DNA of 64,000 nt from Candidatus Nomurabacteria bacterium (GCA_020632415.1 JACKFO010000002.1:711918-775917), one strand, 5' to 3'; positions 15,617 through 63,667 are shown, counted from the stretch's first letter. A program made the numbers and translations. Notes: generated from the sequence alone by a model not told the origin.

Positions 15617-15653
15617 AGCCCTCTCGCAAGCTGATGCTGCGAGAGGGCTTTTG
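15617..15653. terminator. Bidirectional rho-independent terminator between convergent genes
   Basis: 12-bp stem agccctctcgca/tgcgagagggct flanked by T/A runs on both strands. Confidence 0.65.
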
Positions 15654-15668
15654 GTTCCAGAAGGATTA

Positions 15669-16280
15669 TCAGCGGAGCTCGACGTACCAGTCGACTGGCT
15701 TACCATTGAATTCCACCTTGTGACGATCGTCACGAATCGTCACCTTGGTGTAGTGGTTTTCTCCACGCGAAGTTTTCCAGTGAATGGTCATGGGGCCTGG
15801 GCTCAGGTAAAGCGCCTGACTAGCTTGACCGACTTCCAAGTGACCAACATTGCTGTAGCCACGGTAGGATACGATGTCAATTGGCTCTCGATAAGTATTG
15901 ATGAAGTAGCCTTCCAGTCGAGGCATGTTGTTTAGCAGGAAATCGTCTAGCTTAATTTCCTGAATTCCAGACCAGCGTCCGGTTCGCTGAATTGTGATCG
16001 CTTGTTCGTCTGAATATTGATCGATTTCGAGCCAGTACTTGACTCTCAGTCGAAGCTGGTCTTGGCGCGGCGTTTGAAAGCTGTGGCTTTGACCGGGCAG
16101 TAATTCAACGTAGGAGTTTCCCGAAGCTTCGGCCACGCTGAACATTACTCGCTCTCTGTCAGCTACGACTTTCCACTGACAAAACTCTTCGTTGTAATTC
16201 ATGCCACCATGGTAAGTGGCGCAGCCGGTCAGGAAGGCGACAAAGAGGATTGTCAGCCAGAGCAGTTTGTTGATCTTCAT
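15669..16280 (-). CDS. Hypothetical lipoprotein in a GC-rich island
   Basis: Signal peptide MKINKLLWLTILFVAFLTGC with lipobox. SD aggaaaag precedes the ATG at 16280. Local GC is about 50% against about 30% in the flanks. Confidence 0.55.
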   Translation of the reverse strand: MKINKLLWLTILFVAFLTGCATYHGGMNYNEEFCQWKVVADRERVMFSVAEASGNSYVELLPGQSHSFQTPRQDQLRLRVKYWLEIDQYSDEQAITIQRTGRWSGIQEIKLDDFLLNNMPRLEGYFINTYREPIDIVSYRGYSNVGHLEVGQASQALYLSPGPMTIHWKTSRGENHYTKVTIRDDRHKVEFNGKPVDWYVELR

Positions 16281-44846: not shown

Positions 44847-45248
44847 TCAGCCTCTAAGTAGAGCCATGATCCTTCCCATTGCTGCGAGCTCGTCTTCTCC
44901 CTTGGCCTTGATCAAGGGGAAGAATGACCGACAAAAACGAGTATGGTTGTCGTTCCACCAAGAATCAACAAAGCCGTTGAGCATATTTCTCGCGCAAGAT
45001 GTTTTTTCTTGCTCGAATAAGCTAAGGCAATACAGGACTTCCAAGATGAGCAACTTATCGATTTCTTCGGCGCTGATTTCTACCCCTTCTTCTCGGAGCA
45101 CGTCTGCGCTTTTGAAGTACACAATTAACTGTAAAAAGCCGAGGACGTTTTCTCGATAGTTTAGAGCGCACCTTAAGCCGAAGTATTGCTCTTGGGTTTT
45201 TCTGTCAAAGGGATCGCTGATGACTAGCTCTATCTCGTTGATCTTCAT
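44847..45248 (-). CDS. Hypothetical protein in a GC-rich island
   Basis: 133 aa; SD GGAGG 8 nt before the ATG; GC about 48%. Confidence 0.45.
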   Translation of the reverse strand: MKINEIELVISDPFDRKTQEQYFGLRCALNYRENVLGFLQLIVYFKSADVLREEGVEISAEEIDKLLILEVLYCLSLFEQEKTSCARNMLNGFVDSWWNDNHTRFCRSFFPLIKAKGEDELAAMGRIMALLRG

Positions 45249-47994: not shown

Positions 47995-48936
47995 TTAGGA
48001 AGTGATCGCTTCGGGTTTCGTTTTCGTGGGTTTCTTGAAGATGGCTTTCCACACCAGAAGCAGGAGCCAGGCGCTCAGCTTGCCACAGGCGATGTAGCTG
48101 ATGAGCAGGACGTTGAGGTGGAGGTAGTTGAGGTCTAGTTGTGGCAAGAGCAGACCTTTCATGATGACGCCATAGCAGGCAAAGAAAATTAGTAAATGGA
48201 ACGCAGAGATAATAAGTCTCCAGTCTTCGCTCCAACGTTTCTTTCCTCGCACGGGAGAGAAATGGCCAAGTAAGACAGAAGCAACTACTATCATGATCAT
48301 GTACGATAGAAAAAGTTTGTCATAAATGACCGTCAGATTGAGAAAGCCCAGAGCCAGCAGGTAGTAGCCGAAGCTAAACCAGCCAAAGGGATGAAACTTG
48401 TTTTCCTTCGCTTTCACTCGAATCAGCCAGAAGAACCAAAAGCCCAGAGCAAAGAGGGGCCAGAACAACCAAGCTATCACTGGCGCTTTTTGATTGGCTG
48501 GTGTTTTTCCGCTCTGGTCAACGAAAGATCGATTCAGATCGTCAATGGTGATGATGTGCGTTGTTCTCTCACCGTGGAGCAATGGCACTGACCAGGGAGG
48601 AAAGAGTTTGATGCCTTGCCAATGATTGGTTTCGATTTGGATCGTGTCTCGTTGGCCATTGGTCAGGCCATAGAGCCAGTATTGGTGAACCAAGTTTTGA
48701 TCTAGTAGCTTCTGAACGCTTTCCGGAATTTGATAGCTCGCCTTCCGTTGCATCGGCTTAACGATTTTGATTTCGATGATCTCCTGTTGGTCGATGACCA
48801 TCGACTGGCCGACGATGTTGAAGTCTTGTTCTGTTCTTGCGTTGTAGCTGCTATCTGCTTCGGCCATCGGATAAGCCAGGGCAGTGGCGCTGGCTAGCAG
48901 AAGGCTGAGCCAAAAGGCGCAAAAGAGGTTCTTCAT
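47995..48936 (-). CDS. Hypothetical secreted/membrane protein in a GC-rich island
   Basis: Signal peptide, a periplasmic domain of about 150 aa, then 4-5 TM helices. SD GGAGA; GC about 48%. Confidence 0.5.
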   Translation of the reverse strand: MKNLFCAFWLSLLLASATALAYPMAEADSSYNARTEQDFNIVGQSMVIDQQEIIEIKIVKPMQRKASYQIPESVQKLLDQNLVHQYWLYGLTNGQRDTIQIETNHWQGIKLFPPWSVPLLHGERTTHIITIDDLNRSFVDQSGKTPANQKAPVIAWLFWPLFALGFWFFWLIRVKAKENKFHPFGWFSFGYYLLALGFLNLTVIYDKLFLSYMIMIVVASVLLGHFSPVRGKKRWSEDWRLIISAFHLLIFFACYGVIMKGLLLPQLDLNYLHLNVLLISYIACGKLSAWLLLLVWKAIFKKPTKTKPEAITS

Positions 48937-57290: not shown

Positions 57291-57698
57291 TTATTTTTTG
57301 TATTTTCTTAAAAATTCTTTTTGATCATCATATTTGGTAAAATTTTTATGATGTTTTGGTGGAATAAAGTTTTGACCTGGCTTATGTTGGATACCACACC
57401 AATAGCTTTCTGTTTCGGCTGCGATCATAACCCAATAATTAAAAAGTCCATTAGCATAACCACAGTACATACAATTTATTTTCTGCCAGTTTTCTAAATA
57501 AGAAAGTTTTTGTCGATCAATTCGAATATATTGTTTGCGATCAACATATTCTAAGCCATACAGAGCAAAACAAGCATGATGATAAATTTCGATCACCACG
57601 TCTAGTATGAATAAAAATGGCAAAACTCCCCAAATAAAAGGCAGAGATAAAACGTGATACAAATCTTTAAATGATCTTTGGTCTTTAAAATATTCCAT
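57291..57698 (-). CDS. Hypothetical TM/Cys protein
   Basis: ORF with HHAC and CMYCGY motifs. Confidence 0.35.
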   Translation of the reverse strand: MEYFKDQRSFKDLYHVLSLPFIWGVLPFLFILDVVIEIYHHACFALYGLEYVDRKQYIRIDRQKLSYLENWQKINCMYCGYANGLFNYWVMIAAETESYWCGIQHKPGQNFIPPKHHKNFTKYDDQKEFLRKYKK

Positions 57699-57759
57699 AG
57701 CCTAAAATTTTTTAGTAATCAATAATTTAATGCTTTAATAATAACATATTTTTTTGCAG

Positions 57760-57800
57760 AAAAGAAAAAGCCCGCTACTCTCAAGAGAGAGCGCGGGCTA
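57760..57800 (-). terminator. Rho-independent terminator of the SemiSWEET-like gene
   Basis: agcccgc...gcgggct hairpin followed by a minus-strand T-run. Confidence 0.55.
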
Positions 57801-57819
57801 CGGGTGCGTGGAGATTTGT

Positions 57820-58107
57820 TCACGAGAAGTGTCGATAGTAGAAGATGAGCATGATCACGGTTGTGGTGACAAGCGCGCTCAATGTCATGCAGACCACAAG
57901 GACATTGCTTCTCTTGATGTAGCCCTCGAAAGCAAAGGCGATCTGAATGAGAAAATAGATCGCAAACATTTCGATGGCTAGTCCCTCGGTTTGCTTTGTC
58001 TGGATGAGGCGGATGAGCTGAGGAATCATTGCCATTACATTGACCAATCCCGCTATCCAGATGATGAATGACCAACGAATTTTGGCCGCGAATTCTTCGC
58101 GTGTCAT
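57820..58107 (-). CDS. PQ-loop / SemiSWEET-like three-TM protein (GC-rich island)
   Basis: AMIPQLIRLIQTK PQ-loop motif in 95 aa with three TM helices. SD AGGAGAAGG precedes the ATG at 58107. Confidence 0.55.
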   Translation of the reverse strand: MTREEFAAKIRWSFIIWIAGLVNVMAMIPQLIRLIQTKQTEGLAIEMFAIYFLIQIAFAFEGYIKRSNVLVVCMTLSALVTTTVIMLIFYYRHFS

Positions 58108-58127
58108 GGCCTTCTCCTGTCCGTGGA

Positions 58128-58736
58128 TTATACCCATTCAGTAATAGGCAATCGGTTCCTGATGCGATAAACGCACAGAACGCCACATATCATACTTGCG
58201 GCAATGAGCATGTACACTGGCAGTGCGTAGTTAGCGAAAGTGTGCTCAGTGATGGCGAGGATCGACAGGCCATAGCCGATGCCGAACATGCCCCAGGCGA
58301 ATGGACGATCTTCATGTGGGTTTTTCCAAACAAACTTAAGTATTGGAATTCCAGCACAGGCATCGGCTATAATTGCTAAGTATAGTGCGAATTGGACTTT
58401 TGATGGCTCGTTGCGCACTAAGATCCATGATGCGATTGCGATGATGCCGATTAACCCGCAAGCGATGTCCCAGCCGTCAATCTTTTTACTTGATCCGCGC
58501 CACCACGCAAGTACGGTGATGATTGTGGGGTTTGCCGCTCCCAGTATTGCGGGCCAGATATTGCTAGTTGCACCGGAGGCATCATAAGTGGCTAGTAGCG
58601 CCCAACCAATAATTGACCAGATGATCCAACTGATTAAGTTCAGCGTAATTTTTCTCTGATACACTCTGATTGCGTATGGCATTGCACTTACCATAACAAT
58701 CAGGCCAGAGATTTGACCGATCGTCTCTGCTTTCAA
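58128..58736 (-). CDS. Hypothetical polytopic membrane protein (internally repeated; possibly PnuC/SWEET-fold-like), GC-rich island
   Basis: TTG start with SD AGGAG. Two similar halves (AMPYAIRVYQRK... and AGIPILKFVWKNP...) and Trp-rich helices. Confidence 0.45.
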   Translation of the reverse strand: MKAETIGQISGLIVMVSAMPYAIRVYQRKITLNLISWIIWSIIGWALLATYDASGATSNIWPAILGAANPTIITVLAWWRGSSKKIDGWDIACGLIGIIAIASWILVRNEPSKVQFALYLAIIADACAGIPILKFVWKNPHEDRPFAWGMFGIGYGLSILAITEHTFANYALPVYMLIAASMICGVLCVYRIRNRLPITEWV

Positions 58737-58915
58737 GGTGGTTCTCCTCGTTTTATTCTCAATGTTCCATTAAGCTTTGTTAGCCTAAATATCATATTAT
58801 AATATCATATTTCTAGAATTTTGTCAATATTAAGTAAAACCTGTTTATTATTGACATTTTAGCTATTTTTCTTTATATTTATTAATCTTTTCTTAAGTAT
58901 GTTATAATAAAAAAG

Positions 58916-60404: not shown

Positions 60405-60417
60405 TATATCATATTAT

Positions 60418-60452
60418 TGACTTTTTTATCTTTTTGGTGTATAGTATCAAAA
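60418..60452 (+). promoter_or_regulatory. Near-consensus sigma-70-type promoter (TTGACT, 17 nt spacer, TATAGT)
   Basis: ttgacttttttatctttttggtgtatagtat. Confidence 0.45.
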
Positions 60453-60555
60453 TCGTCGGGTACATTGATGAAACCAAGTAAACTGACAAGGGGTCAGTTT
60501 TTGGTTTAAAGTAACGTGAGAAAGATTGACTCACGTTAGCACGGAGGGAAGTTTC

Positions 60556-60816
60556 GTGAGTGCAGCAGCAGGCAAACAGAAGAAGCCGACAGCCTTCGAG
60601 AGACGGTCGCAGTTTCGCAAGGGCAAGACCTTGGATCAACTGAGCGAGGAGCAGATTTCGAACTTGCTCAGGGATTCCAAGACTTGCACCAACGCTCATC
60701 TGCGCGTCGACGGAAAGTGTATCTGGATTTCGTCAATCAACGGCACGGTCACCGGCTACGATTGTCGACGTCAGACACGTCAGTTCCGTCGGGAAGAATG
60801 CGAAGTCCTGATCTGA
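60556..60816 (+). CDS. Small basic Cys-containing protein encoded in a GC-rich island (GTG start)
   Basis: GGAGGG lies 7 nt before the GTG. The ORF is 87 codons at about 55% GC with GC3-rich codon usage, and a strong terminator follows. Confidence 0.35.
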   Translation: MSAAAGKQKKPTAFERRSQFRKGKTLDQLSEEQISNLLRDSKTCTNAHLRVDGKCIWISSINGTVTGYDCRRQTRQFRREECEVLI

Positions 60817-60841
60817 ACTTCTGGCCTCACGAGCGCGTCAC

Positions 60842-60878
60842 ACACTGTCGATCTTCGGGTCGACAGTGTCTTTTTTTT
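60842..60878 (+). terminator. Strong rho-independent terminator (UUCG tetraloop hairpin followed by T8)
   Basis: acactgtcgatc-ttcg-gggtcgacagtgt then tttttttt. Confidence 0.75.
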
Positions 60879-60934
60879 GACAAAATGAAGAAAATAGATT
60901 ACTTTTATAGTACAAGTAAATAAAAAACATTTGA

Positions 60935-61112
60935 TCCAAGATTTAATGTCCCTTGGAGAGTTGCTGAAAGAAATCTAAAGTTTAGAAAGTAGACTCAGTC
61001 GGGGTGCGCCCGTTATTGCGCTAAAATTAAGTGTCTCTTAGTTCAAGAGAAATTAAGGTGGTACCGTCAAGTTTTGACTTGACCCTTAAACGCAAATTAA
61101 TGCGTTTTTTAT
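60935..61112 (+). promoter_or_regulatory. T-box riboswitch leader of valS
   Basis: T-box core aaattaaGGTGGTACCGtc at 61051-61070, against the consensus AAUUAGGGUGGUACCGCG. A downstream terminator aaacgcaaattaatgcgtttttt sits at 61088-61110. Stem-I-like agagttgctgaaag and a candidate GUA specifier lie upstream. Confidence 0.5.
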
Positions 61113-61126
61113 TTTAAATAAAATTT

Positions 61127-63667
61127 ATGGATAAACAAGATAATTTTAATTTAGCCAAAGCTTACGAGCCACAAGAGTATGAGGCAGAGATTTATCGTCT
61201 TTGGGAGGAGTCAGGATTTTTTAATCCAGACAATTTATCTGAAGGCAAAGAGTCTTTTACTATTTCTATGCCACCACCAAATGCAACTGGAATTTTGCAC
61301 TTGGGTCATGCTTCGACCTTGGCTTATCAAGATTTAATGATTCGTTATCAGCGTTTACGTGGTAAAAAAACCTTGTGGCTACCAGGCACTGATCACGCGG
61401 CCATTGCTACACAAACTAAGGTTGAAAAAATTTTGGCTGAAAAAGGGGTGGATCGACATAGTTTAGGTCGCGAAAAATTTTTGGAAAAAGTCAAAGAGTA
61501 CGTGGCAGACTCTCAAGGCACCATTCGTAATCAAATTAGAAAAATAGGGTCTAGTTGCGATTGGTCTCGTGAGGCCTATACTTTTTCAGATAGTTTGTCT
61601 GTCGCGGTTAACGAAGCTTTTGTGCGCATGTATAACGATGGCTTGATTTATCGTGGCTATCGGATAGTAAATTGGTGTCCACGTTGCGCTTCGACTTTAG
61701 CTGATGATGAAGTGGAATACCAAGAACAGCTTGGTAAATTATATTACATCAAATACGGACCATTTGTTGTGGCAACAACTAGACCAGAAACAAAATTAGC
61801 CGATACTGGCGTAGCTGTAAATCCCGAAGACACTCGTTATCAAGATTATCTAGGACAAGTTTTAGAAATTGATCTAGCTGGTCATAAAATCAAAGTCAAA
61901 GTTTTTGCCGATGCGCAGGTAGATTCAGAATTTGGCAGCGGTGTAGTTGGAGTTACGCCAGCTCATAGCGCTGTTGACTATGATTTCGCTCAAAAAAATG
62001 ATTTAGAGATTATCAAATTAATTGATGAACAAGGAAAAATAATGTCTACTGGCGGTAAATATGCTGGTTTGACAGTTTTAGAAGCTCGTGAAAAATTTGT
62101 CAAAGATTTGGAAGCAGCAGGACAAATTGAAAAGATTGAAGATTTAGAAAATAATTTGTCCATTTGTTATCGTTGTGATACTCCGATCGAGCCTCTGACT
62201 TCTGAGCAATGGTTTGTGGCGGTAGACAAAAAAATTCCCGGTCGCGATCAGACTTTGAAAGAGTTGGCTATTCAAGCGGTTAAAAATAAAGAAATAAAAA
62301 TTGTTCCTGATCGTTTTTCCAAAGTTTATTATCATTGGATGGAAAATTTACACGACTGGTGTATTTCTCGACAAATTTGGTGGGGTCATCAGATTCCAGT
62401 TTGGTACAGCGAAGATCAAAAAATGATCGTGGCTATTTCTGAAGAAGATGCCTTAAAAAAAGCAGGTGGCCAAAAGATTGCTCGCGATCCAGATACTTTG
62501 GATACTTGGTTTTCTTCTTCTTTGTGGACTTTTTCAACTCTTGGTTGGCCAGAAAAAACAAAAGATTTAGATTTATTTCATCCGACAAGTGTGATGGAAA
62601 CGGGTTATGATATTTTATTTTTTTGGGTAGCACGCATGATTTTGATGTCAGAGTATTTACTTGAAAGTAAGCCTTTTGAAACTGTTTATCTTCATGGCAT
62701 GATCAGAGATAAAGAAGGTAAGAAAATGTCTAAGTCTTTGGGCAACGGCATTGATCCGATTGAGATGATCGAAAAATTTGGCACCGATGCCTTACGTCTT
62801 TCTTTGATTATCGGTTCAAGCCCTGGGGCAGATTTAAGGCTTTACGAAGAGAAAATTGAAGGCTACCGTAATTTTGTAAATAAACTTTGGAATATTTCTC
62901 GTTTTGTTTTTTCACAAGTTGGAGAAATAAAAATAACTGAAAATTTACCAAAAACAGAGACTCTAGCGGACGCTTGGATTTTAGCGGAGTTTAATTTATT
63001 GATTAAAGAAGTGACTGAAAATCTAGAAACATTCAAGTTTTCTTTAGCTGGTGAAAAACTTTATGAATTTACTTGGTCAAAATTCGCTGATTGGTATTTA
63101 GAGGTTGCTAAAATAGAAAAAAATAAAGATGAGATTTTGTTGTATATTTTGCCAAGGCTGTTAACTATTTGGCATCCTTTTACGCCATTTGTAACAGAAG
63201 TAATTTGGGAGCAATTTAAGTCTGATAAATTTTTGATGATTAATCAATGGCCAAAAGCAGATGAGTCAAATCAAGAAGCTCAGGAAAATTTTAAAGATTT
63301 TATTGACTTAGTAACTCAAATTAGAAATATTAAGGCGGAAAATAAGATTCCACCAGTTGAGTTTGTAGATTGTTATCTAGAAAGTCAAGTTTTGAGCTCT
63401 GCTGACTTAGAGGTTGTAGCAAAATTAGGACGAGTTAATTTAAAAACAGAAGAAATAACAGGGGAGAACTTTGCTTCTTTTAAGTCCCGTGGTCAAATCA
63501 AGGCTGCAAAGGCGATGACTGAAAAGGAGAAAGAGGATTTAGAAAAATATATTAAGTCCCTGGAAGCAAAGCTTGGTAACAAGGCTTTTGTTGAAAATGC
63601 TCCGCCAGAGGTAGTAGCAGATAATCAAAAGCGTCTTGAAGAAGCAAAACAAAAATTAGCGAATTAA
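61127..63667 (+). CDS. valS: Valine--tRNA ligase
   Basis: HIGH region PPPNATGILHLGHA, KMSKS, and a C-terminal coiled coil. Confidence 0.95.
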   Translation: MDKQDNFNLAKAYEPQEYEAEIYRLWEESGFFNPDNLSEGKESFTISMPPPNATGILHLGHASTLAYQDLMIRYQRLRGKKTLWLPGTDHAAIATQTKVEKILAEKGVDRHSLGREKFLEKVKEYVADSQGTIRNQIRKIGSSCDWSREAYTFSDSLSVAVNEAFVRMYNDGLIYRGYRIVNWCPRCASTLADDEVEYQEQLGKLYYIKYGPFVVATTRPETKLADTGVAVNPEDTRYQDYLGQVLEIDLAGHKIKVKVFADAQVDSEFGSGVVGVTPAHSAVDYDFAQKNDLEIIKLIDEQGKIMSTGGKYAGLTVLEAREKFVKDLEAAGQIEKIEDLENNLSICYRCDTPIEPLTSEQWFVAVDKKIPGRDQTLKELAIQAVKNKEIKIVPDRFSKVYYHWMENLHDWCISRQIWWGHQIPVWYSEDQKMIVAISEEDALKKAGGQKIARDPDTLDTWFSSSLWTFSTLGWPEKTKDLDLFHPTSVMETGYDILFFWVARMILMSEYLLESKPFETVYLHGMIRDKEGKKMSKSLGNGIDPIEMIEKFGTDALRLSLIIGSSPGADLRLYEEKIEGYRNFVNKLWNISRFVFSQVGEIKITENLPKTETLADAWILAEFNLLIKEVTENLETFKFSLAGEKLYEFTWSKFADWYLEVAKIEKNKDEILLYILPRLLTIWHPFTPFVTEVIWEQFKSDKFLMINQWPKADESNQEAQENFKDFIDLVTQIRNIKAENKIPPVEFVDCYLESQVLSSADLEVVAKLGRVNLKTEEITGENFASFKSRGQIKAAKAMTEKEKEDLEKYIKSLEAKLGNKAFVENAPPEVVADNQKRLEEAKQKLAN

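Follow-up and report, generated by a model that had tools for sequence, protein, structure and literature searches.

This analysis concerns two adjacent genes, here called A and B, in a stretch of 64,000 nucleotides (nt) of DNA (the window) from Candidatus Nomurabacteria bacterium (GCA_020632415.1, JACKFO010000002.1:711918-775917). Positions are counted from the first letter of the window. Both open reading frames (ORFs) are present where a first-pass annotation, made by reading the sequence, had placed them, and both lie on the minus strand. They form one predicted transcription unit in the order promoter, B (58736-58128), A (58107-57820), terminator. Its features are the following, with lengths of proteins in amino acids (aa) and transmembrane helices abbreviated TM.

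58799..58827, minus strand: predicted sigma-70-like promoter of the B-A unit (TTGACA, 17 nt, TATTAT, extended -10 TG)
58744..58749, minus strand: Shine-Dalgarno sequence GAGGAG of gene B, 7 nt 5' of the TTG start, as read from the sequence
58128..58736, minus strand: gene B, 202 aa, TTG start, stop codon at 58130-58128, seven TM helices (3+1+3)
58114..58118, minus strand: Shine-Dalgarno sequence AGGAG of gene A, with a 6-nt spacer to the ATG, within the 20-nt spacer between B and A
57820..58107, minus strand: gene A, 95 aa, ATG start at 58107, stop codon at 57822-57820, three TM helices
57757..57799, minus strand: intrinsic terminator 3' of gene A, consisting of a 13-bp G+C-rich stem with one bulge and a 4-nt loop, then UUUUUCUUUUCU

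The predicted promoter fits the consensus at 11 of 12 hexamer positions, which is a consensus match only, and points away from a promoter-like site of tsaD on the plus strand (58851-58879). The intergenic region upstream of B is kept in a syntenic relative, locus L009, in a blastn alignment extending from 58908 to 58129. At the other end of the unit, folding of an 81-nt stretch for the terminator gave a minimum free energy of -25.7 kcal/mol (z = -3.97), and one of 200 shuffled sequences was equally stable. The terminator was missed by a consensus scan because of the bulge in its stem.

In homologues with ATG in place of the TTG, the 14 N-terminal residues of B are conserved. For this reason we favour the TTG start over an internal ATG chosen by some gene callers (P0001, 188 aa), and the first-pass annotation, which had proposed this start with an AGGAG Shine-Dalgarno sequence, was right on this point. 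For A, all 11 homologues begin with M-[TK]-R at the same site, which leaves an alternative start at 58137, giving 105 aa, unsupported. The GC-rich island in which the genes had been said to lie is real, with a GC content of 0.43-0.54 over 57775-58750 vs 0.20-0.37 in the flanks. The G+C content at third codon positions (GC3) is 0.52 for B and 0.646 for A; the mean over 56 ORFs of the window is 0.306, with a standard deviation (sd) of 0.092. No paralogue of A or B was found within the window.

The proteins encoded by genes A and B

The product of gene A is a SemiSWEET-type protein by its architecture, hinge motif and fold, and a divergent member of that known family. It contains AMIPQLIRLIQTK, with a P29-Q30 hinge in TM1. 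Residues 23-78 match the Pfam PQ-loop model PF04193 with 27.7 bits (E = 2.2e-6), above the gathering cut-off of 22, and a match to the same model is precomputed for 7 of the 11 homologues. The protein remains under the cut-offs of MtN3_slv (PF03083, 18 bits vs 23.7) and of two NCBIfam models, SemiSWEET_2 (NF037968, 27.7 vs 80) and SemiSWEET_3 (NF037969, 24.3 vs 100). A profile of 11 relatives matches the solved SemiSWEETs 4rng, 4qnc, 4x5m and 4qnd with E values from 9e-5 to 3e-3; these proteins come from Thermodesulfovibrio, Leptospira, E. coli and Vibrio. In the AlphaFold model (predicted local distance difference test, pLDDT, of 70), helices span residues 12-37, 45-66 and 68-94. When this model was submitted to Foldseek, the best 11 matches in the PDB were all SemiSWEETs, with target-normalised TM-scores of 0.57-0.73. 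The three helices, the PQ-loop signature and the SemiSWEET likeness that had been noticed in the sequence are all borne out; of the families named for comparison with hidden Markov models (HMMs), PQ-loop is matched and MtN3_slv stays below its cut-off.

Like the bacterial SemiSWEETs of known structure (LbSemiSWEET 4QNC, TySemiSWEET 4RNG, EcSemiSWEET 4X5M and VsSemiSWEET 4QND), A has about 90 residues folded as a bundle of three helices; TM1 carries a Pro-Gln hinge, and a K/T-rich loop comes after it. It differs from them in the pocket. All three HMMER alignments place Phe58 of A opposite the pocket Trp of SemiSWEETs. Opposite the pocket Asn stands the invariant Ala78 in the alignments with the Lb and Ty proteins, or position 74, occupied by Met or Leu, in the ungapped alignment with the Ec protein. 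There is no conserved Asn in TM3, and the pocket pair of sugar SemiSWEETs, Trp50/Asn66 in EcSemiSWEET numbering, is lacking in A. This pair has been described as highly conserved, and the N66A substitution in EcSemiSWEET strongly lowers sucrose uptake (PMC4309421). Glu61, Gln55 and Asn23 are invariant in the A subfamily. As the pocket Asn is replaced, the Trp is a Phe, and Glu61 and Gln55 are invariant, we infer from the aligned sequences that the substrate of A need not be a sugar. Members of the subfamily are rare: among 5.8 billion proteins, a search at the sensitivity of a word index gave 11 clusters, at 52-100% identity. The protein of the window is identical to MCB9803141.1 of Ca. Nomurabacteria.

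The fold of the gene B product is a known one, here in a bacterial seven-helix variant of divergent sequence. The AlphaFold model, computed with 46 relatives in the alignment, has a pLDDT of 93.9 and a predicted TM-score (pTM) of 0.88, and displays seven helices arranged 3+1+3, in which an inversion helix connects two triple-helix bundles as in the seven-helix SWEET/PQ-loop fold. Foldseek retrieved with this model solved seven-helix proteins of the SWEET/PQ-loop fold, with query-normalised TM-scores of 0.47-0.63. Loop charges, read by eye, predict the orientation known from SWEETs, with the N-terminus outside and the C-terminus on the inner side. The protein is rich in Trp, as had been remarked (11 of 202 residues).

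The two bundles of B are related to each other. A comparison of the halves limited to close homologues gave no significant similarity (P = 0.065). With a diverse family profile, hhalign aligned the N-terminal half with the C-terminal half with a score of 30.4 (P = 1.4e-5); 40 column shuffles gave a mean of 10.3 (sd 2.6, maximum 17.5) and the reversed profile 17.7. The A family aligned with the C-terminal bundle of B with a score of 30.7 (P = 1.6e-5). Over all hhalign controls, column-shuffled profiles scored 10-11 ± 2.6 (maximum 19) and reversed profiles 18-20. The hinge motifs fall in register in the half-to-half and the A-to-B alignment alike; they are AMPY (19-21) in TM1 of B, AGIP in TM5 of B (AGIPI, 128-132) and AMIPQ in A. 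B is thus internally duplicated, with hinge prolines in TM1 and TM5. The first-pass annotation had described two similar three-TM halves reminiscent of SWEET-fold transporters. The repeat, the triple-helix bundles and the fold itself are supported by the model, the Foldseek matches and the hhalign alignment; the helix count has to be corrected, the model having seven helices.

In the close subfamily of B, P131 (TM5) and D125 (TM5) are invariant; in TM1, P20 is the majority residue and the adjacent Y21 is invariant. Neither half retains the Gln of the PQ motif, its place being taken by Tyr in TM1 and by Ile or Thr in TM5. SWEETs also lack this Gln, and the hinge proline has been found essential and the Gln dispensable (PMC9385667, PMC4309421). 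B lacks the MtN3_slv match of SWEET sugar transporters; N69 in TM3 and N169 before TM7 may correspond to their sugar-binding Asn pair in TM3 and TM7. Cystinosin (7ZK1, 8DKE), OsSWEET2b (5CTG), AtSWEET13 (5XPD) and the KDEL receptor (6I6B) represent the seven-helix PQ-loop/SWEET fold in eukaryotes. B is unlike them in sequence (6-12% identity, no relation at the HMM level), in the replacement of the PQ Gln, and in its bacterial host, a member of the Candidate Phyla Radiation (CPR).

An exhaustive search with the B profile returned 4,822 clusters (50% identity) at E ≤ 1e-3, and 2,831 at E ≤ 1e-10. Nearly all members have 190-205 aa. The named sources are all CPR: Niyogi-, Yanofsky-, Vogel-, Andersen-, Davies-, Gottesman- and Beckwithbacteria, Paceibacteria and Minisyncoccia. 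Among 51 diverse members there was no match to the PQ-loop model at E ≤ 0.01, and Pfam scans gave chance matches only. JGI annotates two distant relatives as 'uncharacterized protein with PQ loop repeat'. In fusion-like long relatives, a Pfam scan was uninformative, with EamA, SET and DUF2066 partners found once each, possibly through gene-calling errors. In the literature the fused seven-helix architecture is regarded as characteristic of PQ-loop proteins of eukaryotes and as uncommon in bacteria (PMC5972207, PMC9385667). Bacterial examples of SWEET-like proteins with seven helices do exist, 20 having been reported in UniProt, all recognised by an MtN3_slv motif (PMC5972207). These 20 resemble B in being prokaryotic seven-helix proteins read as duplicated and fused triple-helix bundles. 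The B family differs in being far larger and in the lack of a PQ-loop or MtN3_slv match in B and 50 diverse relatives. Literature searches turned up no paper that deals with PQ-loop proteins of Patescibacteria.

Two loci of the B family call for mention. On a Minisyncoccia contig (L038:1028-5618), a B relative is accompanied within 4 kb by two more B-like ORFs (hmmsearch E values of 1e-23 to 1e-25), and the three ORFs indicate a local expansion of paralogues. At L118:525-3977 (plus strand), a distant relative lies directly 3' of a 1,150-aa ORF. One neighbour in the scanned set matched the large subunit of archaeal DNA polymerase II (PolD DP2), and this match was assigned by size to the 1,150-aa ORF. 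If the assignment is right, the B family may also occur in archaea, perhaps DPANN.

Genomic context and origin of the two genes

A search with the A profile found no A-like ORF at any of 32 other loci containing a close relative of B, and B is absent from all four A-homologue loci. The syntenic relative L009 has the order valS, tsaE, tsaD, B, with 81% identity for B and 79% for tsaD, and has no A. Homology between its DNA and that of the window runs through the shared intergenic region and B, and stops at the stop codon of B (58129). These observations speak against the earlier idea of an acquired pair: the adjacency of A and B is a historical accident of this lineage only, and the two genes do not make a functional unit.

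The homologues of A (52-75% identity) are found in unrelated genomic contexts. One of them, 67% identical to A, lies at L002:4409-11252 in an acyl-CoA ligase/SDR/hydantoinase operon of a genome of at least 3.5 Mb with 57% GC and a TonB-dependent receptor. Its gene overlaps an AMP-binding ligase gene at the stop codon of the latter, and a 111-aa ORF, an SDR gene and hydantoinase A/B genes come after it; this setting may hint at a substrate other than a sugar for the SemiSWEET subfamily of A. Of two further loci, one has the A homologue after glycogen synthase and GalT, and the other beside a PfkB kinase on the other strand. No conserved partner emerged, the small ORFs 3' of the A homologues being unrelated to one another and to the window.

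B likewise has no recurrent neighbours. Around the close subfamily (32 loci), no neighbour cluster occurred in more than three loci and no Pfam family in more than 2 of 80 neighbours. Around the distant branch (34 non-redundant loci), the commonest neighbour family, the CAP domain, accounted for 3 of 130 neighbours.

With regard to origin, the GC3 of A lies 3.7 sd above the window mean and that of B 2.3 sd. Since A is absent from L009, where homology ends at the stop codon of B, A was either gained here or lost in the L009 lineage; a gain is favoured because the composition is atypical and the relatives are patchy. A combines the two marks of a horizontal island, atypical composition and presence or absence in a syntenic relative. 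For B, the GC3 excess is also present in L009, at the same locus. In 17 of 20 CPR loci, the close B subfamily is richer in GC3 than the genes around it (mean +0.10, and up to +0.23 in low-GC hosts), while the difference is -0.04 for the distant branch and only +0.05 for other hydrophobic ORFs. As the L009 locus is the same and 17 of 20 loci are GC3-rich, the excess in B is old or specific to the gene rather than the trace of a recent event here. It could reflect repeated transfer of the subfamily among CPR genomes, or a gene-specific constraint. No match indicating a mobile vector was found by tblastn of A against plasmids and phages, or of B against phages.

The horizontal acquisition proposed in the first-pass annotation for both genes is thus upheld in part. 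A horizontal origin of A is well supported, by its GC3, its absence from L009 and the 67%-identical homologue in a genome of 57% GC. The case of B is ambiguous, with the same locus and the same GC excess in L009.

Proposed functions and alternative explanations

The locus is probably a single transcription unit in which two functionally unrelated carriers of the PQ-loop/SWEET (MtN3-like) type, B monomeric and A homodimeric, have come to be adjacent by accident. Transport activity, oligomeric state, substrate and direction are proposed for the two proteins as follows. B would be a monomeric alternating-access carrier made of a triple-helix bundle, a linker helix and a second triple-helix bundle. 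The bundles would rock about the hinge prolines P20 (TM1) and P131 (TM5) around a central pocket, which would be lined by conserved Trp, Tyr and D125. This mechanism is suggested by the fold, the two hinge prolines and the invariance of D125 in the close subfamily. The substrate might be a small polar or cationic solute, imported by a biosynthetically poor CPR bacterium. A would be a three-helix SemiSWEET, the pathway of which would require a parallel homodimer, as in the solved SemiSWEETs. With its own ribosome-binding site and the terminator, A would have come to sit immediately 3' of the stop codon of B in this lineage only.

Several points weigh against this proposal. B has no match to the Pfam PQ-loop, MtN3_slv or PnuC models, or to NCBIfam, even at E ≤ 10, and the profile of its family has no match among PDB sequences. 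Its placement in the superfamily is based on a predicted structure and on weak profile-profile scores (hhalign probability of about 80%). The siting of the conserved residues in the central pocket is presumed from helix positions, not measured. The model of A is of moderate confidence, with a pLDDT of 70 and 11 sequences in the alignment. The PQ-loop fold is not always that of a carrier: the KDEL receptor serves in trafficking, and some proteins of this fold have been described as lipid flippases (PMC9385667). One distant relative of B (P0330) lies inside a glycosyltransferase operon.

The last two points lead to a different function for B, that of an MPDU1-like factor or a flippase presenting polyprenyl-phosphate-linked sugars to glycosyltransferases of the outer face, rather than a solute carrier. 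MPDU1 is a PQ-loop protein. The operon of P0330 (L042:1-8573) has overlapping start and stop codons and comprises GT2, GT2, three small proteins, the B relative, a PTPS_related membrane protein, a 491-aa protein and GT87. Another distant relative adjoins dTDP-rhamnose genes on the other strand, and lipid flippases have been proposed among PQ-loop proteins (PMC9385667). However, the idea, drawn from one glycosyltransferase operon, did not generalise across the neighbour surveys: no glycosyltransferase is among the recurrent neighbour families of the close subfamily, GT2 and Polysacc_synt_3 each account for 2 of 130 neighbours in the distant branch, which is no more than many housekeeping families, and the neighbours of B in the window are tsaD and gene A. 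This function is considered unlikely.

About equally improbable is the proposal that two uptake channels for small solutes, working together, were acquired horizontally as a cassette, with A a SemiSWEET sugar uniporter and B a PnuC-like carrier of vitamins or nucleosides. A and B are both rich in GC and GC3 with respect to the window, share one promoter and one terminator, and are respectively SemiSWEET-like and, like PnuC, Trp-rich. PnuC is a Trp-rich protein with pseudo-symmetric three-helix repeats around a linker, and B resembles it in these features. The two differ in that no HMM match to PnuC (PF04973) is obtained with B at E ≤ 10, and PnuC does not appear in the lists of structural neighbours; the reading of B as a PnuC-like protein is accordingly rejected. 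The general comparison is treated in PMC7162841. The cassette is further at odds with the lack of the A-B pair at any other locus examined, with L009, where B occurs alone and homology ends at its stop codon, implying separate arrivals, and with the lack in A of the conserved sugar-binding Asn (PMC4309421). Its 'PnuC' and 'pair' components are largely refuted.

That A and B make one functional hetero-complex, A for instance regulating or extending B, is the least probable of these explanations and hardly to be expected. The genes are predicted to be co-transcribed, are 20 nt apart with no terminator between them, and encode related folds. Against this, B already has two bundles and needs no partner, the solved SemiSWEETs are homodimers (PMC9385667, PMC5972207), and the adjacency is unique to this genome. 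Two unrelated carriers brought together by accident remain the preferred explanation.

The analysis turns two 'hypothetical proteins' of this genome into candidate solute carriers, which is useful because in CPR bacteria few transporters are recognisable for the many compounds that they cannot make. The B family has 4,822 clusters without a Pfam or NCBIfam model, and possesses the fused seven-helix architecture. A name for this family and knowledge of its substrate would close a gap in the physiology of CPR bacteria and inform the origin of the 3+1+3 fold. The gain is a useful annotation, with no new mechanism and no new kind of system. It may tentatively be proposed that B belongs to a very large unnamed family of monomeric 3+1+3 carriers of the SWEET/PQ-loop fold; such a family might provide a main uptake route for an essential metabolite in reduced CPR episymbionts, and the 'eukaryotic' fused architecture would then be widespread in prokaryotes.

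Other features of the window

Directly 3' of the terminator, and 5' of a CYTH-domain gene, lies a 135-aa ORF (57291-57698, minus strand) with a CMYCGY motif and no Pfam match. This ORF and the CYTH-domain gene also come after gene A in L001.

On the other side of the unit, a GC-rich stretch (60409-60900, GC 0.46-0.54) separates tsaE from a T-box leader-like element. The stretch has no Rfam match, contains two overlapping 96-aa ORFs on opposite strands without Pfam match, and is not kept in L009 at the DNA or protein level. The T-box-like element (60921-61090, plus strand) is immediately 5' of valS, which starts at 61127. It matches Rfam RF00230 over the full model (1-219) with 51.9 bits (E = 2.3e-10), under the gathering score of 93.

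The other ORFs of the window with outlying GC3 are those at 47995-48936 (minus strand, 0.61), 44847-45248 (minus strand, 0.56) and 15651-15935 (plus strand, 0.52). They are probably the other GC-rich islands of the first-pass annotation.
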